The translations under genes were made by a program, and so were the position numbers. This document shows, one piece after another, positions 2-56,251 of a DNA stretch of 64,000 nucleotides. Source of the DNA: Candidatus Spongiisociaceae bacterium (GTDB lineage: Bacteria > Actinomycetota > Acidimicrobiia > Spongiisociales > Spongiisociaceae); NCBI GenBank assembly GCA_965219685.1, contig CBDCOH010000002.1, positions 3,360,001-3,424,000 of the forward strand, read 5' to 3'. Each line of letters starts with the position of its first letter. The first letter of the stretch is position 1. The notes under the pieces are model-generated. The model made no database searches. It saw only the letters and a program-made list of their open reading frames with translations, and was not told where the DNA came from.

Positions 2-1168
2 TTCATCACCGTCTTCGGCGGCCTTCTGGCGGCCGTCAGATCGTGGGCCCCGCGCTCGGTACCGTTCCTGATCCCACTGGCGGCCACCCTTACCGCGGTA
101 GGGTTCGTGATCCTGTACCGCCTCGACCATCAGTTGGCCGGCGTGCAGCGCTGGTGGCTGCTGACCAACGCCGGGCTGGCGGCGCTGTGGCTCTTCTCGG
201 TCAGGACGAGAGGGATTCGCTCGCTGGCCCGCCACCGCTACGTCTTGCTGGCTGTGGCCGCGGTCCTCGCGTCGCTTCCCCTGATCCCTCCGGTCGAGGG
301 TCTCCCGGTGCAGGGACTGCCGATCGACGGCTCCCGGCTCTGGGCGGAGTGGTCCTGGGGCGTTCAGATCCCGTTCCAGCCCGGCGAGGTGGCGAGGCTT
401 CTCCTGGTCGTGTTCCTCGCCTCGTTTCTGTCGGAACACCAGACGGCTCTGAGCGCGGCGGGCCGGACGGCCGGGAGGCTCCGCCTCCCTCAACCCCGGG
501 GCTTGGTACCCGCGGGGGTCGGCTGGCTCGCCAGCCTCGCGATCCTCCTGTACTTCAGGGACCTGGGCGCCTCCCTTCTGCTCGCCGCGGTGGTTCTGAC
601 GATGCTGTACATAGCCACCAACAGACCCTCATACCTGGCGACGGGAGGCGGCCTCGTTGTGGCCGGTGTGTTCGTTGCCTACTTCGTGGTCGACCATGTA
701 CGGGACCGCATCGACGCCTGGTTCGATCCATGGGCCAACCTCGACGGCGCCGGCCTCCAGACCGTCCAGGGGCTGTTCGCCCTAGCCGCCGGGAGCCTCT
801 CCGGCACGGGCCTGGGCCTGGGCGAGCCGGGCCTGATTCCCACGGCGACCACCGGCTTCGTCTTCGCCGCTTCGGGGGAGGAGCTGGGTCTGGCAGGCTC
901 CGTGGTGGTTCTGGCCGCGTACGCTCTACTGGTCGCGACGGGCTTCGGCATCGCTCTGCGCGCGAGGGACCTATTCAGAAAGCTGCTGGCCGCCGGTCTG
1001 TCCCTCACGCTGGGCTTCCAGACGCTGCTGGTTGTCGCCGGCGTGCTGCGGATCCTCCCGGTGACCGACATGACCGCCCCTTTCATGTCGGCGGGAGGCT
1101 CGTCGACGTTGGCCGGGTTCCTGCTCCTGGCGCTGCTGGCGCGGACCAGCCACGAGGAGCGCACGTGA
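2..1168 (+). CDS. rodA: FtsW/RodA/SpoVE (SEDS) family protein, 5'-truncated by window edge; catalytic Asp replaced by Gly
   Basis: Frame open from nt 2; multi-TM; SEDS motifs FQPGEVAR, DLG, GEELG, PFMSAGGSS; upstream of pbpA/pknB. The conserved TDFIF motif reads TTGFVF. Confidence 0.9.
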   Translation, partial: FITVFGGLLAAVRSWAPRSVPFLIPLAATLTAVGFVILYRLDHQLAGVQRWWLLTNAGLAALWLFSVRTRGIRSLARHRYVLLAVAAVLASLPLIPPVEGLPVQGLPIDGSRLWAEWSWGVQIPFQPGEVARLLLVVFLASFLSEHQTALSAAGRTAGRLRLPQPRGLVPAGVGWLASLAILLYFRDLGASLLLAAVVLTMLYIATNRPSYLATGGGLVVAGVFVAYFVVDHVRDRIDAWFDPWANLDGAGLQTVQGLFALAAGSLSGTGLGLGEPGLIPTATTGFVFAASGEELGLAGSVVVLAAYALLVATGFGIALRARDLFRKLLAAGLSLTLGFQTLLVVAGVLRILPVTDMTAPFMSAGGSSTLAGFLLLALLARTSHEERT

Positions 1169-2301
1169 ACGGACCGATGCGACGCGTGGCGTTGGGCCTG
1201 TTCCTGGCCTTCCTGGTCCTGGCCCTGGATGTCACCTACTGGCAGATCATCGCCGCCGACCGGCTGCGGGAACACCCCCAGAACGCCCGCGCCCAGCTGG
1301 CCCGCTCAGGCCGGGAGAGGGGCCAGATCATCTCCTCCGACACGGTAGTGCTGGCCACATCGGTACCGGACCCCTCCGATCCCCGCTACTACGTCCGCGA
1401 GTATCCTCACGGGCCGCTGTACGCTCACACGGTGGGTTTCTCGTCCCCGCTGTTCGGTGACAGCGGCCTCGAGCGCTCTCAAGCCGGCGTCCTCACGTCG
1501 GGCCGAGACCTGACCGTCTCGGGGATCATCAACGCCCTCGTCGGCGAGGACCGGCGGGCCCGCTCCATCCAGATCACTTTGAACCACCGGCTGCAACGGA
1601 CCGCGGCGCGCGCGCTGGGCAGCCGGTACGGGGCGTTGGTTGCCATCGAGCCGACCACCGGACGCCTGCTCGCCCTTGCCAGTTCCCCGACGTTCGATCC
1701 CAACTTCCTGATCGGCGCCGAGGCCGCAACCGTGTGGAACACACTCGGCCGGGACCCCTCCCGCCCCCTCCAGAACCGAGCCACCGGAAGGTGGCTTCCG
1801 GGCGACCTCCTGCCCGCGGATGCGATCACCGGCATCCCCAGTGGTCCGGACACCAGCAGCGAATCGGCCTTCTCACTGGCTCTCAGGACGGCGGCCGTGG
1901 CGACCGGGGGTCAGCCGATGAGACCCTACGTGGTGGCCCGGGTGTTCGACCGGGATTCGCAACTCGAGTCCGAGACCGAACCGATCCCGTTCGCCCAGCG
2001 GCTCAGCGGCGAAGAAGTAGCCACCCTGCGTGACAGCATGGACGTGCTCGAGATCGACAGTGCCCGATTCGGCCCGATACGCGGCCTCGGTGCGTCCGGC
2101 ACCGACCGGGACCCATACGACCGCCAGCGTATCTGGTTCGTCGGTTTCCTCCCCCTGGGCCAGCCGGCCATCGCCGTGGCGGTGGTGATCGAGTCGGTGG
2201 CGGCGAGCGGATCCCGGGGCACTGGCACTGCGGAGGCCGCCTCGATCGGCAGGGCTGTCATGGTGGCCTGGCTGGACCAGCAGAGTCCGCTCGGTCGGTG
2301 A
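1165..2301 (+). CDS. pbpA: PbpA-like class B penicillin-binding protein, internally deleted, lacking SxxK/SxN/KTG motifs
   Basis: GTG start overlaps rodA TGA (GTGA). N-terminal TM, RGQIISSD, YPHGPLYAHTVGF, ALVAIEPTTGRLLALASSPTFDPN, NRAT, WFVGFLP all resemble PbpA. Only 378 aa. Confidence 0.88.
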   Translation: MNGPMRRVALGLFLAFLVLALDVTYWQIIAADRLREHPQNARAQLARSGRERGQIISSDTVVLATSVPDPSDPRYYVREYPHGPLYAHTVGFSSPLFGDSGLERSQAGVLTSGRDLTVSGIINALVGEDRRARSIQITLNHRLQRTAARALGSRYGALVAIEPTTGRLLALASSPTFDPNFLIGAEAATVWNTLGRDPSRPLQNRATGRWLPGDLLPADAITGIPSGPDTSSESAFSLALRTAAVATGGQPMRPYVVARVFDRDSQLESETEPIPFAQRLSGEEVATLRDSMDVLEIDSARFGPIRGLGASGTDRDPYDRQRIWFVGFLPLGQPAIAVAVVIESVAASGSRGTGTAEAASIGRAVMVAWLDQQSPLGR

Positions 2302-2464
2302 TGCCGCCGAGGACGGGAACCTGCCCATCGTCGTCGGTGAAGGAGCCTTCGCGCCCCTCCGCGCGGGCGTGCCAGGCCAACCGCGACCCTGGCGCCGCAG
2401 AGGTGGCCCCCGGCACGACATGGCGAAGGATTCCCCCGGCGGAGCACTAGATTCAGGGGTGGTC

Positions 2465-4609
2465 ATGGACTCACCACATTCTCTAGGAAGGTACGACCTC
2501 ACGGCCCACCTGGCTCGGGGCGGTATGGCGGACGTGTTCGAGGCGTCCGATCGGATGCTGGACCGGCGCGTCGCGGTCAAGATCCTGCACCAGCGCTACG
2601 CCGAAACCGACACGTTCGTCGCACGATTCCGCAAGGAGGCCCAGGCCGCCGCCAACCTCAGCCACCCCAACATCGTTTCCATCTACGACTGGGGTGAGCA
2701 GGAGGGGACCTACTTCATCGTGATGGAACTCGTCAAGGGTCGTTCCCTGCGTGACGTGGTGAAGTCGGAGGGCAAGATCCTGCCACGGCGGGCCGCGGAG
2801 ATCGCCAGCGAGGTCTCCTCAGCGCTGGAGGTGGCGCATCGCAACCGGGTGATCCACCGGGACATCAAACCCGGAAACATCCTCCTCTCGGAGGACGGCA
2901 TCGTCAAGGTCACCGACTTCGGCGTGGCTCGCGCCTGGGATGACTCGGAGGATCTCACCAAGACCGGCGCGGTCATCGGAACCGCCACCTACTTCAGCCC
3001 CGAGCAGGCCCGCGGCGACCCGGCGGACGAACGTTCCGACATCTACAGCCTGGGCGTGGTGCTCTACGAGATGCTGGTCGGACGACCGCCCTTCAGCGGG
3101 GAAACCCCCGTCTCGGTGGCCTACCAGCACGTCACCGCCGAGGTGCCCGTGCCTAGCCGCCTCAACCCGGACGTACCGCCGGAGTTGGAGGCGATCGTGA
3201 TGAAAAGCCTCGCCAAGGATCCTGCCCGGCGTTACGAAGCAGCAGCCGACATCCGTCGCGACCTCCTGCTGTTCCTCCAGGGAAGGAAGCCTCCCAGGCC
3301 CTCTCCGGCCCCGCCGCGACCTGCCCAACCCCAGCGAGGCCGCAGGCCCGACCTCCCGCCTCCCACCGTTGCGCCTGACGAGGCGTACCGGAGGTTGCAT
3401 GCCACCCCCCGTCAGCCGTCACAGGTGCCTTTCATCATCACCTCGATAGCCCTGGCCGCCCTCGTCGTGGTCGGGGTCTGGTACCTGTTCAACGTGATCA
3501 CGGACCAGCCGGACGAGACGACCACGACGACCGGCGTGCGGATGGTTGTCGTGCCGCCCGTGAGCGGAAGGCTGGAGGACGAGGCTATCCAGATGCTCCA
3601 GGAGGCCGGTCTTTTCGTGGTTCCGGAGGGCGAGGCGGGCGACGCCGAGGCCGGCACCGTGCTGCGGACCGAGCCGGGTGCCGGAGCGGAACTCGAGGCG
3701 GGCGAGCGGGTAACGATGGTGGTCTCCATCGGACCCGTACAGATCCAGATACCCAACGTGGTCGGCTCGACGCAGGAGAGGGCCGAGAGTTCGCTCGAAG
3801 GGTTGGGATTCGGGGTAGATCCGCGGACCATCCGGCACGACACCATCGGTGCCGGACTGGTCGTCTCCCAGGATCCTCCCGGTGGGGCCAGCGCGCCGAG
3901 GGGGTCCACGGTGGAACTCGTGGTGTCGGCAGGACCGGAGCCGATCCAGATGCCCCGCGTGACCGGCCTGACCAGCGATCGGGCCGAGGGCAGGCTCGAG
4001 GGTCTGGACCTGGAGGTCGAACTCGTCACCACCTTCCACGACGAGGTGGAAGAAGGGCTGGTGATAAGCCAGAGCCCGGCGCCTGGCGCCGACATCAATC
4101 CCGGTTGGACCGTTCAAATCGTCGTGTCGAGCGGCCCTGAGGAGACCGAGGTCGAACTCGAGGATCTGTCGGGGAGGTCGATCGGCGATGCGACCGCATG
4201 GCTGGAGGAGTCAGGCTTCGAGGCGGTCATCGAGCAGGAGAGCAGCCGGGAGGTCGAGGCAGGCTCGGTCATCCGGACGGAGCCGCCGGGAGGCACCTCG
4301 CTCGAGCCCGGATCCCGGGTGGTGGTCGTGGAGTCCACCGGATCGCCGTTCATCGCCGTACCCGACCTCACCGGCTCCACCATCGAGGACGCGGAGGCTA
4401 CGCTGAGCGACCTGGGCCTTTTGCTGGAGGTTGCCAACTCGCCACGTTCGGTCGACGACCCCAGCCTGGACGGCAGGGTCGTCCGGCAAGCCCCGAGTCC
4501 CGGAGAGGAGTTGCTCGAGGGCGAGGCGGTGCTGGCGGTACTCGGCGAGTACTCCCCGGAGCCAACGCAGCCGCAGGACGGCAACGACGAGGAATCGGAG
4601 ACCGCATGA
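2465..4609 (+). CDS. pknB: PASTA-domain Ser/Thr protein kinase (5 PASTA repeats)
   Basis: GGMADV, VAVK, HRDIKPGN, DFG, GTATYFSPEQARG; Pro-rich linker; TM; five repeats starting VPPVSG, IPNVVG, MPRVTG, LEDLSG, VPDLTG. Start ATG 2465 inferred. Confidence 0.95.
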   Translation: MDSPHSLGRYDLTAHLARGGMADVFEASDRMLDRRVAVKILHQRYAETDTFVARFRKEAQAAANLSHPNIVSIYDWGEQEGTYFIVMELVKGRSLRDVVKSEGKILPRRAAEIASEVSSALEVAHRNRVIHRDIKPGNILLSEDGIVKVTDFGVARAWDDSEDLTKTGAVIGTATYFSPEQARGDPADERSDIYSLGVVLYEMLVGRPPFSGETPVSVAYQHVTAEVPVPSRLNPDVPPELEAIVMKSLAKDPARRYEAAADIRRDLLLFLQGRKPPRPSPAPPRPAQPQRGRRPDLPPPTVAPDEAYRRLHATPRQPSQVPFIITSIALAALVVVGVWYLFNVITDQPDETTTTTGVRMVVVPPVSGRLEDEAIQMLQEAGLFVVPEGEAGDAEAGTVLRTEPGAGAELEAGERVTMVVSIGPVQIQIPNVVGSTQERAESSLEGLGFGVDPRTIRHDTIGAGLVVSQDPPGGASAPRGSTVELVVSAGPEPIQMPRVTGLTSDRAEGRLEGLDLEVELVTTFHDEVEEGLVISQSPAPGADINPGWTVQIVVSSGPEETEVELEDLSGRSIGDATAWLEESGFEAVIEQESSREVEAGSVIRTEPPGGTSLEPGSRVVVVESTGSPFIAVPDLTGSTIEDAEATLSDLGLLLEVANSPRSVDDPSLDGRVVRQAPSPGEELLEGEAVLAVLGEYSPEPTQPQDGNDEESETA

Positions 4610-5538
4610 AACCGGTGGCAAGCCACCTTGCGCCGAGCCCGACCGGCAGCGAGCCGGCCGTGACCATCACCGACGCCGTGTTCCGCTACGGGAGCGAGGT
4701 GGTGCTCGATCGCTCCAGCCTTGCCATAGAACCCGGGACGATCACCGCCCTCATCGGTCCTAACGGCGCAGGGAAGTCCACGCTCCTCAACGGGATCGCC
4801 GGCCTGATCCCCCTGTCGGAGGGCCGAGTGGAGCTTGGAAGGGCCAATGGCCGGCCCTTGCGCCTTTCGTACGTGTTGCAGGACACCAAGATCAACCAGT
4901 CGCTTCCGGTCACGGTTCGCGAGGTGGTGAGCATGGGCCGCTACCCCGGCAAGGGACCCATCAGACCCCTCTCCAAGCGTGACCGGCAACTCGTGGACAA
5001 GGTGATGGAGCGAACGAACATCAGCCATCTGGCCAAGCGCCACCTGTCACGGTTGTCGGGAGGACAGCGCCACCGCGTGCTCCTGGCCCAAGGCTTGGTC
5101 CAGGAGCACGAGATCCTGCTGCTCGACGAGCCGGCGACCGGACTCGACCTGGTGTCTATCCAAGCCATAAGGGACACGGTGCGCGAGGAGGCCAACATCG
5201 GATGCACGGTGATTCTCACCACCCACGACATGGCCGACGCTTGGACAGCCGACTACGTGGTGTTGCTTGCCGGAAGGGTGGTCACGAGCGGCCCGCCCGA
5301 GGAAGTCCTCCAGTCGTCCCACCTCATCGAGGCCTACGGAACCGCCCTGCTGAACGTGGACGGAACCCACCTCCTCCTGGACGATCCGCATCACGACCAC
5401 CCCGACTCTCACCAGCCGACCATGCGATCGATCAGCGTGGAGACATGGGAATGGCTCCGCGAGGAGATCCCCCGGCTACTCGGCGCTTCGCCCGAGGACA
5501 TGATCGCGGGCAGGGACAAGACGACAGAACCTGAATAG
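4606..5538 (+). CDS. Metal (Zn/Mn) ABC transporter ATP-binding protein, ZnuC-like, orphan
   Basis: GPNGAGKS, LPVTVREVVSMGRY, LSGGQ, LLLDEP, TTHD; His-rich tail DDPHHDHPDSH; ATGA overlap with pknB stop. Confidence 0.85.
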   Translation: MKPVASHLAPSPTGSEPAVTITDAVFRYGSEVVLDRSSLAIEPGTITALIGPNGAGKSTLLNGIAGLIPLSEGRVELGRANGRPLRLSYVLQDTKINQSLPVTVREVVSMGRYPGKGPIRPLSKRDRQLVDKVMERTNISHLAKRHLSRLSGGQRHRVLLAQGLVQEHEILLLDEPATGLDLVSIQAIRDTVREEANIGCTVILTTHDMADAWTADYVVLLAGRVVTSGPPEEVLQSSHLIEAYGTALLNVDGTHLLLDDPHHDHPDSHQPTMRSISVETWEWLREEIPRLLGASPEDMIAGRDKTTEPE

Positions 5539-5566
5539 TGAGTGGTGAATCGTGAATGGTGAATGG
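5536..5566 (+). repeat. Heptamer tandem array TGGTGA(A/G), about 4 units
   Basis: TAGTGAG TGGTGAA TCGTGAA TGGTGAA TGG; contains the stop of the upstream gene. Confidence 0.85.
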
Positions 5567-5717: not shown

Positions 5718-5779
5718 ACTCACCACTCACCACTCACCACTCACCACTCACCACTCACCATTTACCACTCACCACTCAC
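5718..5779 (-). repeat. Heptamer tandem array (CTCACCA)n, about 8.5 units, inverted relative to 5536-5566
   Basis: Six perfect CTCACCA, then TTTACCA, CTCACCA, CTCAC; encodes the VSGEW* end of trpG. Confidence 0.95.
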
Positions 5780-6328
5780 GAAGTTCTCCAGGAGGGCCAT
5801 GCCTTCCACGGTGAGAACGCTCTCGGGGTGGAATTGAACGCCATGGATGTCGAGTTCCCGGTGCCTCACGCCTTGGACCACATCGTCCTCGCTCCACGCG
5901 CAGGGCTGTAGTACGCCGGGGAGCTTTGCCGCGGAGAGCGAGTGGTACCGCGTCGCGACGAACGGGTTGCTCAGCCCCTTGAAGACGCCCTCGCCGTCGT
6001 GGCGGACCGAGGAGGTCTTCCCGTGCATGACCTGGGGCGCAAGGTCCACCTGCCCGCCGAAGGCGGTGACGATCGCCTGATGGCCCAGGCAGACGCCGAG
6101 AATCGGAACGTGTCCTGCGAAACGCCGGATGTACGCTATGGAGTAACCGGCATCCTCGGGCCGGCCCGGACCCGGCGAGATGACCACCCGCTCAGGGTTC
6201 AACTCAGCCGCCCCATTCGCGTCCAACTGGTCGTTCCGCACGACGGTGGGCTCCGCGCCCAACTCGCCCAGGTACTGGACCAGGTTGAACGTGAAGCTGT
6301 CGTAGTTGTCGAGCACCAGGATCCTCAT
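5762..6328 (-). CDS. trpG: Anthranilate/aminodeoxychorismate synthase component II (glutamine amidotransferase)
   Basis: MRILVLDNYDSFTFNL, ISPGPG, LGVCLGHQ, RYHSL, GVQFHPES; canonical position between pknB and crgA. Confidence 0.95.
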   Translation of the reverse strand: MRILVLDNYDSFTFNLVQYLGELGAEPTVVRNDQLDANGAAELNPERVVISPGPGRPEDAGYSIAYIRRFAGHVPILGVCLGHQAIVTAFGGQVDLAPQVMHGKTSSVRHDGEGVFKGLSNPFVATRYHSLSAAKLPGVLQPCAWSEDDVVQGVRHRELDIHGVQFHPESVLTVEGMALLENFVSGEW

Positions 6329-6422
6329 GGCGTGCACGAGGATACCGGGCCGGGTTCGCAAGAGCCCCGGAGAAACCCGCGAAGTTTGTACAGGGCGGCG
6401 CGGGAGCGGTTACCCTTTGGTA

Positions 6423-6668
6423 ATGCCGCAATCCAAGGGACGCCGCAAAGCCAAGACGGTGCGGAGACCGACGCCGCCCAAGAGCGCGTCCGGAGGCAAG
6501 CGTGCCAAGCAGTCGCCGAAGATCTACGTTGCGATCATGTTCGGCCTGATGGTCTTGGGCGTGCTGATGGTCGTCACCCGCTATATCCTCGACACCCCCT
6601 CATGGCTTCTGCTGGCAGGGCTCGGATGCATGGGTGCCGGCTTCCTGATGACCACCAACTATCACTGA
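6423..6668 (+). CDS. crgA: Cell division protein CrgA
   Basis: MPQSKGRRK start, SP motif, two TM helices, GFLMTTNYH end; divergent from trpG as in other actinobacteria. Confidence 0.85.
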   Translation: MPQSKGRRKAKTVRRPTPPKSASGGKRAKQSPKIYVAIMFGLMVLGVLMVVTRYILDTPSWLLLAGLGCMGAGFLMTTNYH

Positions 6669-6728
6669 GTGGTAAGTGGTGAATGGTGAATGGTGAATGG
6701 TTAGCACTCCACCAGCCACCAGCCACCA
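6666..6728. repeat. Heptamer arrays (TGGTGAA)n followed by (CCAGCCA)n; possible 3' hairpin
   Basis: TGAG TGGTAAG TGGTGAA x3 TGGTTAG ... CCAGCCA CCAGCCA directly after the crgA stop. Confidence 0.8.
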
Positions 6729-10022: not shown

Positions 10023-10033
10023 TGCGTTCGCCC

Positions 10034-10075
10034 GTTGCCAGTTGCCAGTTGCCAGTTGCCAGTTGCCAGTTGCCA
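10034..10075 (+). repeat. Heptamer tandem array (GTTGCCA)6
   Basis: Six perfect units ending 11 nt upstream of the deacylase ATG. Confidence 0.95.
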
Positions 10076-10174
10076 GTCAGGCTACCCGTTCACCGCTACC
10101 CGAGCACTGCTCAGCCCAGGCCAAGTGCCCGTTCCTGTGGAGGGCCGCTTGGGTTCTCCGAATCGCAGTCCGGA

Positions 10175-16345: not shown

Positions 16346-17479
16346 GTGAGCAGATACAGCAACGACCCCTACCGGACACTTCTCGGTCTGCGACCGTTCA
16401 TAAACGCGTCGGGAAACTCCACCACGCTCGGGGGCAGTGTCATGCCCGGCAAGGTGGTCGACGCAATGGCCGCCGCGGCCCGATCCTTCATCGATCTGAA
16501 CGCCCTGCACGAGAAGGCGGGAGAGAAGTTGGCCGAGATGATCGGTGTAGAAGCCGCCTTCATTTCGTGCGGCGCTTCCAGCGGCGTGGCGATGTGCGCC
16601 GCCGCCTGCATGACCGGAGGAGACCCGGAAAGGGTTGCAAGCCTGCCGCATACGGAGGCGTTTGCAGACGAGTTCGTGATCAGCCTCATAGACCCCCACG
16701 TTTTCGTTCACCAGGGCATCGAATCGGTCGGCGGCAAGCTGGTCAGGGTAGGTAGCCGTACCGACGTGACCATCGCCGATATGGTGGCCGCCATTGGTCC
16801 GCGCACCGCGGCCGTGGTGCTGTTCTACGGTCTGCAGTCCCGCCAGGACCTGGCCGAGTTGGCTTCGGCTGCTTCGGCGCTCGGCGTTCCGGTCATCGTC
16901 GACGCCGCCGCCCAGCTCCCGCCCCGTTCCAACCTGACCTCGCTCCTCGATCTGGGAGCTTCCCTGGTCGCCTTCAGCGGCGGCAAGGCGATCAGAGGGC
17001 CGCAGAGCACCGGCCTGGTCCTCGGGCGAGCCGACCTGGTGGAGGCGGTCAGGCTCAACGCCAACCCCTTCACGGCCATCGGCCGCGGCATGAAGGTGGG
17101 CAAGGAGGAGATCGTGGGCCTGCTGGCCGCGGTCGAACTCTTCCTGGCCGCGGATGAAGAGGAGGAACTGGCGGGCTGGCGCCGGGACCTGGAGGGCATC
17201 GCCGCCAGGCTCAACGAACTCGACGGCGTACGCGCCGAGGTCGGATCCAAGGGGCACGCAGCGGCACCCGCCGCAGTCGCTCGTGGGTACGTCACGTTGG
17301 ATCCCGACCGAACACCGCCGGCCGCATCGATCATCGAGGACCTGCTGGCCGGGGAGCCTTCGATAGCGCTACGGGCCGATGCAGACGCCATCGTGATCGA
17401 TCCGATGACCATGCTGCCGGGCGACGCCGAGGTGGTGGCCCGGCGGATGGCGGAAGTTATTGTTGGCGTTAGGCGTTAG
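16346..17479 (+). CDS. SelA-like PLP enzyme (DgaE-type ammonia-lyase family)
   Basis: PFINASGNSTTLGGS, VIVDAAAQ, FSGGKAIRGPQSTG, IGRGMKVGKEEI; about 377 aa, lacking the SelA N-terminal domain. GTG start inferred. Confidence 0.85.
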   Translation: MSRYSNDPYRTLLGLRPFINASGNSTTLGGSVMPGKVVDAMAAAARSFIDLNALHEKAGEKLAEMIGVEAAFISCGASSGVAMCAAACMTGGDPERVASLPHTEAFADEFVISLIDPHVFVHQGIESVGGKLVRVGSRTDVTIADMVAAIGPRTAAVVLFYGLQSRQDLAELASAASALGVPVIVDAAAQLPPRSNLTSLLDLGASLVAFSGGKAIRGPQSTGLVLGRADLVEAVRLNANPFTAIGRGMKVGKEEIVGLLAAVELFLAADEEEELAGWRRDLEGIAARLNELDGVRAEVGSKGHAAAPAAVARGYVTLDPDRTPPAASIIEDLLAGEPSIALRADADAIVIDPMTMLPGDAEVVARRMAEVIVGVRR

Positions 17480-17513
17480 GCGTTAGGCGTTAGGCGTTAG
17501 GCGTTAGGCGTTA
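17465..17513 (+). repeat. Heptamer tandem array (GGCGTTA)7
   Basis: Seven perfect units; supplies GVRR* and the TAG stop of the PLP enzyme. Confidence 0.97.
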
Positions 17514-17590
17514 GGCGGCGGTTGGGCTCTCTCTTCCCTCTCGGCCCGAATCGGTAGCGTTGCGGTTTCCCCGCGTTTTCTTGGCAAATC

Positions 17591-44440: not shown

Positions 44441-44525
44441 CCGTTATCCGTTGCCCGTTGTTCGTTGGCCGTTGGCCGTTGGCCGTGGACGAGGGGCCGT
44501 GGACGGCAAACGGCGGACGGGGAAA
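44441..44525. repeat. Degenerate heptamer array (CCGTTGG)n grading into CGGCGGA-type units between convergent genes
   Basis: CCGTTAT CCGTTGC CCGTTGT TCGTTGG CCGTTGG CCGTTGG CCGTGGA CGAGGGG CCGTGGA CGGCAAA CGGCGGA CGGGGAA. Confidence 0.8.
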
Positions 44526-55248: not shown

Positions 55249-56229
55249 GTGGTCGAGCGGCCCACGGTGTGCATCTTCCCGGACTTCGAGCCCGACCTCG
55301 TGGCGGCGATCGAAGAGAACTGCCGGGTCCGGTTCGTGGACATGGCATCCCCACGCGTCCACCAGCTCGCTGCCCTGCACGACGCCCAAGGTGTCCTGCT
55401 CAACCCGCTGACCCCGGCCGACCGGGAGTTCTTCGAGGCAGCGCAGCGGCTGCGGGTTCTGTCCACCGCCAGCGTCGGATACGACACGATCGACATCGGC
55501 GAGGCCACCCGGCGCGGCATCATGGTCTGCCACACCCCAGGCGTTCTCACCGCGGCGGTGGCCGATCTGACCATGGTGTTGATCATCTCCCTGGCGAGAC
55601 GGCTCTTCGACAACGAGCGGTACGTCCGATCGGGAGGATGGGCCAGGGCCGAGCCACCCCCGGACCTCGGCTCCGATGTCGACGGCAAGACACTCGGCGT
55701 GGTCGGCTTCGGTCGGATCGGCCAGGAGGTCACCCGCCGCATGCAGGGCCTCGGGATGCGCACGCTGTGGTATGACGCGATCGGCGACCCCCATCCGCAG
55801 GCACCGGCCAGCCGGTACCGCCCACTCCACGAGTTACTGGGCGAGTCGGACTTCGTCACCCTCCACGCCGACCTGAACGCGGCTTCCCGGCATCTCATCG
55901 GGGCCGAGGAACTGAAACTCATGAAGCCCACCGCCTACCTCATCAACACCGCCCGGGGCGGGCTGATCGACCAGAGCGCCCTGACCGAGACTTTGAGGTG
56001 CGGCACCCTCGCCGGCGCCGCTCTCGACGTCCTCGAGGTGGAGCCACCCGATCCAGACGATCCGCTCCTGGTCCTGCCCAACGTGGTGTGCCTTCCCCAC
56101 ATCGGGACCGCCACCACGGAAACCCGCCGCCGGATGCGTGAGATGGCAGTACGCAACCTGCTCGCAGGCCTCGCCGGCGAGACCCCGCCCGCCGTTGCGA
56201 ACCCGGGGTTGGTGAGTGGTGAGTGGTGA
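55249..56229 (+). CDS. D-isomer 2-hydroxyacid dehydrogenase (glyoxylate/hydroxypyruvate reductase-like)
   Basis: VGYDTID, GFGRIG, INTARG, LDV.EVEP, PHIG. Confidence 0.92.
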   Translation: MVERPTVCIFPDFEPDLVAAIEENCRVRFVDMASPRVHQLAALHDAQGVLLNPLTPADREFFEAAQRLRVLSTASVGYDTIDIGEATRRGIMVCHTPGVLTAAVADLTMVLIISLARRLFDNERYVRSGGWARAEPPPDLGSDVDGKTLGVVGFGRIGQEVTRRMQGLGMRTLWYDAIGDPHPQAPASRYRPLHELLGESDFVTLHADLNAASRHLIGAEELKLMKPTAYLINTARGGLIDQSALTETLRCGTLAGAALDVLEVEPPDPDDPLLVLPNVVCLPHIGTATTETRRRMREMAVRNLLAGLAGETPPAVANPGLVSGEW

Positions 56230-56251
56230 GTGGTGAATGGTGAATGGTGAA
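56210..56251 (+). repeat. Heptamer array (TGGTGAG)3(TGGTGAA)3
   Basis: Supplies VSGEW* to the dehydrogenase and the ATG of the next gene. Confidence 0.93.

Follow-up and report, generated by a model that had tools for sequence, protein, structure and literature searches.

Pairs made of a SEDS protein and a class B penicillin-binding protein (bPBP) are regarded as drug targets and as the central enzymes by which the wall grows. Nonenzymatic roles such as scaffolding, activation, and signaling are debated for them and have usually been probed with engineered point mutants. The closest described system to the one presented here is the RodA-PbpA pair of Mycobacterium tuberculosis (Rv0017c/Rv0016c; PbpA structures 3lo7 and 3un7), encoded in the order fhaA-fhaB-pstP-rodA-pbpA-pknA-pknB; a fhaA-fhaB-pstP-rodA-pbpA-pknB cluster is conserved throughout the Actinobacteria (PMC6554272). 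This study concerns the corresponding pair, written RodA* and PbpA*, in a 64,000-nucleotide (nt) stretch of a Candidatus Spongiisociaceae bacterium, from a family of sponge-associated actinobacteria (assembly GCA_965219685.1, contig CBDCOH010000002.1; G000:C2:3360001-3424000 in our labels), which is called the window. By their sequences, the two proteins are orthologues of actinobacterial RodA and PbpA that lack the catalytic residues of both enzyme families.

The locus has the same orthologous position and gene order as that of M. tuberculosis. PbpA* has the PBP_dimer_2 pedestal, and both by sequence and by fold it is most similar to bPBPs of the PbpA type, that of M. tuberculosis among them. 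Unlike the M. tuberculosis pair, it lacks the Ser and Lys of SxxK, as well as SxN and KTG; about 105 amino acids (aa) are deleted, and RodA* is without its Asp. There is one kinase gene here versus two in the M. tuberculosis-type cluster, and the organism, unlike that system, possesses MreB as well as a RodA-PBP2 pair encoded elsewhere. The canonical SEDS-bPBP synthases (Escherichia coli, 8tj3; Thermus thermophilus, 6pl5; FtsW-FtsI) share with this pair the two folds, the adjacency of the genes, and the same predicted complex between transmembrane helices (TM) 8–9 and periplasmic loop 4 of RodA and the membrane helix of the bPBP, but both catalytic centers are absent here.

Engineered or conditional noncatalytic roles of bPBPs are known. 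Bacillus subtilis PBP2B and Staphylococcus aureus PBP1 are needed as proteins, while their transpeptidase activity is not. They resemble the present case in having a structural or activating role apart from cross-linking, but they keep an intact active site and an active SEDS partner, whereas in the present pair both partners are affected, by a natural loss that has become fixed in a clade. In Clostridioides difficile, the dcw-encoded SEDS-bPBP pair was repurposed for sporulation (PMC10693644). It is likewise a pair no longer in its ancestral role, which other synthases have taken over, but its enzymes are still catalytic (PMC10693644). Full-text literature searches, whose coverage largely excludes subscription journals, turned up no account of a SEDS-bPBP pair that is naturally dead, and a text search of a Streptomyces PBP review (PMC6273383) gave no passage on motif-less class B PBPs of this operon.

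RodA* lacks the catalytic aspartate of SEDS proteins

The window opens inside the SEDS gene, and a bPBP gene and a PASTA Ser/Thr kinase gene follow. The rodA* frame is open from position 2 to 1168 (+ strand); these are the last 388 of 430 codons and the stop, and the full open reading frame (ORF; 430 aa, L003:1210-2502) starts 126 nt upstream of the window. It reads IPTATTGFVFAASGEELG, with a Gly codon, GGC, at 854–856. In phmmer alignments, the stretch iptattgfvfaasgeelgl matched lperhtdfifavlaeelgl of E. coli RodA (8tj3_B) residue for residue, and the same stretch matched lpeahtdfvfavlaeelg of Pseudomonas aeruginosa FtsW. Because both alignments are residue for residue, Gly327 falls exactly at the position of E. 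coli RodA Asp262. This Asp is the catalytic residue in E. coli, and the D262A mutant is enzymatically inactive (PMC10449877).

RodA* matched the SEDS profile PF01098 (FtsW/RodA/SpoVE) with 186.6 bits against a cut-off of 26.4, the lowest score of the three SEDS genes of the genome. It fell below the NCBIfam equivalog cut-offs of both ftsW (205.2 vs. 337.5) and rodA_shape (147 vs. 336.7). A crude hydropathy scan gave 12 hydrophobic segments, two of them overlapping, where 10 TM are expected of a SEDS protein.

The Asp was present in all nine long-form relatives, those with a full-length PbpA and intact transpeptidase motifs. Among 19 aligned relatives carrying the short PbpA described below, the position was occupied by Ser in ten, Gly in five, Arg in three, and Asp in one (G019). 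No new acidic residue was conserved in the loop around the lost Asp in the aligned short-clade members. Gly, Ser, and Arg are one-step neighbors of each other through GGC, a pattern that fits, without proving it, a loss of constraint after a single change from Asp to Gly. As a reference we took the 43 columns that are invariant across eight long-form RodAs and the canonical RodA and FtsW of this genome. The RodA* of the window keeps 35 of the 43, and ten, the Asp included, are kept in fewer than half of the 19 sequences.

PbpA* lacks all three transpeptidase motifs

The pbpA* gene (1165–2301, +; 378 aa) has two candidate starts, GTG at 1165 and ATG at 1177. The GTG overlaps the rodA* stop as GTGA (1165–1168). 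The segment NRATGRWLPGDLLP (1774–1815) aligns to the PGSTFK region of full-length relatives. In the alignment with the nine long forms, PGDLLP (1798–1815, +) is the remnant of this SxxK motif, with Ser replaced by Asp214 and Lys by Pro217. A gap of 106 alignment columns follows; it marks an in-frame deletion of about 105 aa with its junction at 1816–1860 (+), which takes out SxN together with the remainder of the SxxK helix and the helical portion of the transpeptidase domain. GASGT (2089–2103, +) aligns to GKTGT, with Lys replaced by Ala and Thr by Ser. The three motif sites are thus DLLP (SxxK), deleted (SxN), and ASG (KTG).

Domain searches gave the same picture. The pedestal was present (PBP_dimer_2, PF21922; 57.9 bits, profile positions 1–82 of 83), and the transpeptidase domain was matched by Pfam only over positions 165–298 of 299, the last 134. 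M. tuberculosis PbpA (3un7_A) aligned in two pieces, skipping chain residues ~194–297 (~104 residues). The score against the NCBIfam pbp2 equivalog was 125 versus a cut-off of 455. As the nucleophile is absent, covalent binding of β-lactams by PbpA* would be expected to be negative.

An AlphaFold2 model of PbpA*, built from an 18-sequence alignment, had a mean predicted local distance difference test (pLDDT) of 78.4 and a predicted template modeling score (pTM) of 0.76. It comprises a membrane helix, the pedestal, and, as what is left of the transpeptidase domain, a compact sheet-plus-helix unit; a block of low pLDDT at residues 221–230 lies at the deletion junction. The best structural matches were the M. 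tuberculosis PbpA entries (E 2.6e-22, query TM-score 0.64–0.66).

The dead pair is a trait of a clade

A search of 41 related genomes with a PbpA query of 374 residues gave matches in 40; the remaining genome, G012, is 72% complete. A contiguous whole-length match was found in 19 genomes, covering all those of genera g1 (8 of 8), g4 (3 of 3), and g7 (8 of 8), and the other 21 had a two-piece match with ~95–100 extra codons between the pieces. Within the family, every one of the 23 species genomes from g1, g4, and g7 had the short PbpA, and the five matching genomes of g2, g3, g5, and g6 all had the long one. The dead pair is a clade trait and not a lesion of a single genome.

Thirty orthologous loci were extracted and aligned, of which 19 carry the short form and 9 the long form, while 2 belong to genus g3. 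Two of the long forms (L033 = G028 and L035 = G039) belong to genomes that carry an unpublished flag and are counted in the motif, substitution-rate, tree, and relative-rate results; no conclusion hangs on them alone, because the seven other long forms show the same motifs. The long forms had S..K, SCN, and KTGT in nine of nine. The short forms had none of the three motifs.

Genus g3 (L130 = G014 and L131 = G009; also L028 and L031) has a full-length PbpA with an altered active site. SxxK reads SAFY or SVFT, and SxN reads SCG or SCD; KTG reads ASG in one genome and KTG in the other. The RodA position holds Asp in one genome and Glu in the other. Genus g3 may represent an intermediate stage of the same degeneration.

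In a collection of 5.8 billion proteins, 38 of the 120 clusters listed were 367–380 aa long, with at least 97% coverage, 51–100% identity, and always an open frame; one is named “Candidatus Spongiisocius sp.” by its source. The short form occurs in records titled Candidatus Spongiisociaceae bacterium, Acidimicrobiia bacterium, and Candidatus Spongiisocius variivorans. When 1.84 billion representatives were searched with a profile, only the cluster of the window itself and P0123, together with a fragment, P0049, matched over the whole length in a single stretch among the best 150; the others were two-stretch long forms, fragments, or broken gene calls. P0128, P0167, and P0217 were considered as natural short forms and rejected, since each matched at the N terminus only and carried PGSTFK followed by sequence that looks out of frame, as in a broken call.

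Four further PbpA homologues (P0156, P0159, P0201, and P0202) are 880–913 aa long, with the PbpA part beginning at residue ~420–440. They are probably natural RodA-PbpA fusions in other lineages, and as such they would fit a pair that acts as one unit.

The changes are not sequencing or assembly errors, given their conservation in relatives and in independent contigs. Among runs from other studies, two had more than a third of the sampled words of the stretch, one labeled sponge metagenome and the other coral metagenome. A contig from the sponge run (X5) spans 2–2396 with 58 substitutions and no gaps, and none of the listed differences, a list that leaves out 17 more, is at 854–856; contig pieces from the coral run (X6) cover 708–984. 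A third contig, X1, is identical to the window and does not count as independent, because it may be its source.

An earlier note, made from the letters of the window, had reported the Gly codon at the SEDS Asp, a PbpA devoid of SxxK and SxN with some 100 or more aa missing and GASGT for KTG, two genes free of stops and frameshifts with GTGA coupling kept, and an intact PknB next to them. All of this was confirmed: the Asp is not merely shifted in the alignment, the missing PbpA stretch shows in the alignment, Pfam, and 3un7_A comparisons, and both frames are open.

Both genes are under purifying selection

All 19 short-clade genes were open at sequence identities down to 41–43%, and the two matches scored as having stops inside were only read-through past the C terminus. 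The ratio of nonsynonymous to synonymous substitution rates (dN/dS) was estimated by the Nei-Gojobori method. Over 15 short-clade pairs it was 0.128–0.392 for rodA and 0.086–0.398 for pbpA, and between the window's genome and its closest relative 0.128 and 0.086, respectively, at dS 0.20–0.25. Five pairs outside the short clade gave 0.17–0.37.

Pooled values (omega, with bootstrap 95% intervals) were obtained from five phylogenetically independent close pairs. RodA* as a whole gave 0.210 (0.174–0.250), and its residues 301–400 gave 0.114 (0.072–0.161). PbpA* as a whole gave 0.234 (0.185–0.288), with 0.177 (0.093–0.282) for the pedestal, 0.178 (0.105–0.282) for the N-lobe, and 0.299 (0.223–0.388) for the remnant after the deletion. 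Each protein has 50–60 invariant residues. The marks of a pseudogene (stops, frameshifts, dN/dS near 1) were not found, with no stops in 19 of 19 and an omega of 0.21–0.23. Neither gene is decaying; both are under purifying selection.

Predicted complex and conserved surfaces

The complex predicted for RodA* and PbpA* scored 0.84 in three runs versus 0.00 for the best of three controls. The pair thereby cleared the mark used for this score, as did 58 out of 80 solved complexes and 2 out of 110 mismatched pairs. The runs shared at least 84% of their contacts, and the partner pLDDT was 74. The predicted interface joins RodA* residues 242–393 (loop 4, TM8–9) to PbpA* residues 1–46. Conservation at the RodA* side was 0.78 versus 0.63 elsewhere, a difference that none of 5,000 random sets reached. 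The windows of highest conservation were RodA* 1–20, 301–380, and 421–430 (the tail ending in SHEER) and PbpA* 21–180.

The RodA tail ...R(x)SHEER (window 1148–1165) and the N-terminal (M/V)SRTAEA are kept in live and dead RodA alike, across the 30 orthologues and order-wide. These tails are candidate docking sites. The C-terminal Thr of RodA* was rejected as a conserved phosphosite; members end variously in T, V, A, S, or L, and conservation is confined to the S-H-E-E-R just before.

Phylogeny and the probable sequence of losses

In a tree of the PknB kinase domain, which is free of the trait, the short-form genomes formed one branch (support 98/94), to which g3 was sister (81/64). Outside lay the other families, as well as this family's long-form genera. 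A quick search on a concatenated alignment without the trait columns gave 100 and 97 (Shimodaira-Hasegawa-like approximate likelihood ratio test, SH-aLRT). The simplest history would be one deletion in the ancestor of g1, g4, and g7. The g3 state suggests that the transpeptidase site was inactivated ahead of both the deletion and the change at the RodA Asp.

Other wall synthases and the PknB locus

The genome encodes three SEDS proteins and four proteins with a transpeptidase domain. The second SEDS gene (TTDFIF) lies in a mreB-mreC-mreD-pbp2-rodA operon, and the third, FtsW (HTDFIF), lies near ftsI; both are intact. The check proposed earlier, that ftsW/ftsI and a mre-linked rodA should be intact elsewhere, thus came out positive. 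In the 41 related genomes, exactly three SEDS matches were found in 38, two in one, and four in two. The clade also has complete MreBCD-PBP2-RodA and FtsW-FtsI machines for wall building, so the RodA-PbpA pair studied here is a third, accessory one in the whole order; judged by its motifs, it is catalytically dead only in the clade of g1, g4, and g7.

Downstream of pbpA*, pknB (2369–4609, +) encodes an intact PASTA Ser/Thr kinase (NCBIfam PknB_PASTA_kin, 660 bits vs. a cut-off of 450, and Pfam) with the motifs VAVK, HRDIKPGN, and DFG and five PASTA stretches. Upstream of rodA* are fhaA-like, fhaB-like, and PP2C (pstP-like) genes. The order fhaB-pstP-rodA-pbpA-pknB was identical in 18 of 18 relatives examined, and the rodA and pbpA coordinates abutted in all 18 loci; fhaA was detected in 14 and not found with the query used in 4. 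Five PASTA stretches were also counted in 6 of 7 other scanned short-clade kinases and in both g3 genomes, the scan leaving aside loci L125 and L126. By genome, the number was four in G019, G011, G008, G040, and G038 and five in G032, G036, and G033.

Some further features of the region were recorded. In genus g4 (L124 = G018, L125 = G015), the match to the pstP query is ~1,420–1,470 nt long versus ~680 nt in other genera, about twofold. Downstream of pknB are a glutamine amidotransferase-like ORF of the trpG/pabA type (5762–6361, –) and a small ORF starting MPQSKGRRKAK (6306–6668, +), which looks crgA-like; their placement resembles the near-origin region of other Actinobacteria, and trpG adjoins pknB in 13 of 18 relatives. 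The window also contains heptanucleotide tandem arrays of 5–9 copies at 5718–5779, 6666–6701, 10030–10077, 17465–17517, 44448–44486, and 56210–56250 (also 5532–5564). Their units differ (ACTCACC, TGAATGG, GCCAGTT, GGCGTTA, CCGTTGG, TGGTGAG); one array is 100% regular, and at least the first is intergenic. They are reminiscent of the heptamer STRR repeats of cyanobacteria.

Discussion

We interpret RodA* and PbpA* as a conserved pseudoenzyme pair, both partners dead and kept under selection, that would work as a noncatalytic scaffold or adaptor in the PknB module; we give this reading a probability of roughly 0.58. The pair has the features of pseudoenzymes: catalytic residues are lost, the fold is predicted to be kept, selection is purifying, and both proteins are conserved across species, with inactivity deduced from the missing residues. 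From the conserved pairing surface, pedestal, and tails, together with the operon order, we infer a noncatalytic complex within the kinase/phosphatase/FHA module, where its role would be that of a scaffold. RodA* and PbpA* would still form the canonical SEDS-bPBP complex, in which TM8–9 and periplasmic loop 4 of RodA* meet the membrane helix of PbpA*, and the complex would serve as a membrane scaffold or adaptor of FhaA-FhaB-PstP-PknB cell-wall signaling. The retained parts would be the PbpA* pedestal outside the membrane and the N- and C-terminal RodA* tails (SHEER) inside.

The proposed course of events has two steps. Inactivation of the transpeptidase, the state seen in the sister genus g3, would have come before the deletion in PbpA and the loss of the RodA Asp, when silencing of the polymerase would have been favored. 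In β-lactam-induced futile cycling, a polymerase without its cross-linker makes uncross-linked glycan. Because this product is wasteful and harmful, selection would favor silencing of the polymerase.

Several observations weigh against this interpretation. One short-clade member, G019, retains the RodA Asp, and only 13 of the 43 invariant SEDS columns are fully kept in all 19 RodA* sequences. The order of events is an inference only, because g3 could have lost the lysine independently. Deletion in PbpA and Asp loss in RodA amount to one phylogenetic event, so finding them together has no statistical weight. The pairing score may reflect likeness to known complexes and not binding, since RodA-PBP2 complexes (6pl5, 8tj3) are already solved; moreover, the membrane-helix interface of PbpA* is not more conserved than the rest (0.66 vs. 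0.64, reached by 1,794 of 5,000 random sets). Rates scaled to the p-distance of the adjoining PknB kinase domain, with three partial sequences set aside, were 2.32 for RodA in the short clade versus 1.64 in the long forms (~1.4 times faster) and 2.70 versus 1.68 for the C-terminal part of PbpA (~1.6 times faster); the N-terminal part was not raised (1.74 vs. 1.93). Constraint on RodA* and on the transpeptidase remnant is therefore partly relaxed. Finally, the link with PknB is one of synteny only. That synteny of rodA-pbpA beside a kinase gene is ancestral to Actinobacteria (PMC6554272). The number of PASTA stretches showed no clean link to catalytic loss among the kinases scanned in the short clade, g3, and the long forms.

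The main alternative to a scaffold is a decoy. With its pedestal and membrane interface retained, the dead pair could act as a brake on the active elongasome by competing with catalytic RodA-PBP2 for a shared MreC-like activator or for lipid II, and so tune wall growth in a slow-growing symbiont. We consider this unlikely. It would agree with the purifying selection on both proteins, with the adjacency of mreC to the active pair, and with the pedestal and N-lobe being the best conserved part of PbpA* (windowed conservation 0.71–0.83, omega 0.18), but the operon context is the kinase/phosphatase/FHA module and not mre. Erosion of positions that are conserved in all active SEDS proteins, likely substrate-contacting ones included, speaks against sequestration of lipid II. 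An improbable alternative is that the pair is still active, RodA* polymerizing glycan by means of another base while PbpA* is only an allosteric activator. The bPBP pedestal does activate its SEDS partner in canonical systems (PMC6207328, PMC10257715), and RodA* retains its fold, the GEELG motif, Asp229, and Pro322, which corresponds to E. coli Pro257. Against this, D262A abolishes the activity of E. coli RodA-PBP2, and with all three transpeptidase motifs gone the only product would be uncross-linked glycan. The replacement residue varies by lineage, the loop has gained no conserved acidic residue, and at ten of the 43 universal SEDS positions most members have lost the residue; this missing replacement and the much eroded signature make residual polymerase activity unlikely.

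That both genes are decaying together toward pseudogenes under relaxed selection was one of the two explanations offered in the earlier note. The faster evolution of RodA* and of the transpeptidase remnant, the erosion of SEDS signature positions, and the two other complete synthase pairs of the genome would suit it, but the loss is old, being common to three genera (23 of 23 species genomes), all 19 aligned members keep intact frames despite their divergence, the internal stops proved to be C-terminal read-through, and the upper bootstrap bounds of omega for whole RodA* and PbpA* stay below 0.3. We reject it as very improbable. The sister genera other than g3 keep intact motifs, but dN/dS in the short clade is well below 1. 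Least credible of all is that the frames stay open for operon mechanics alone, as translational coupling or spacing for pknB, with the proteins irrelevant. The GTGA overlap and the abutting genes in 18 of 18 loci fit this idea. However, coupling keeps frames open and does not keep amino acid sequence, so an omega well below 1 in every region and the many invariant residues mean that selection acts on the proteins; in addition, mycobacterial kinase genes have promoters of their own (PMC6554272). The other explanation of the earlier note, retention as a noncatalytic complex, gains support from the old shared loss, the intact frames, and the low dN/dS, as well as from the conserved predicted RodA interface, the predicted pairing, and the conserved PknB operon. 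Its more specific version, a sensor of lipid II or peptidoglycan feeding PknB, is if anything weakened by the ten SEDS positions eroded in most members and by the PASTA numbers.

The clade offers a natural experiment on such complexes. Both active sites have been lost throughout it, but selection still acts on the pairing surface, pedestal, and cytoplasmic tails, all beside the kinase that controls actinobacterial wall synthesis. Comparison of the dead pair with the live pair of the sister genera separates residues for catalysis from residues for assembly, and it is also an evolutionary test of the harm done by an uncoupled polymerase. That the hosts are uncultured tempers the weight of the finding for cell-wall biology. 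A broader reading, possible though doubtful, is that this is the first natural SEDS-bPBP complex without both activities, a dedicated noncatalytic subunit of a PASTA-kinase signaling machine that evolved in an ordered way, with the cross-linker dying first and the polymerase then silenced so that futile glycan synthesis was avoided. If true, such a subunit would have the task of anchoring or placing PknB, PstP, and the FHA proteins, or of sensing wall state by way of the retained pedestal, and the SEDS-bPBP architecture would have a function independent of catalysis.

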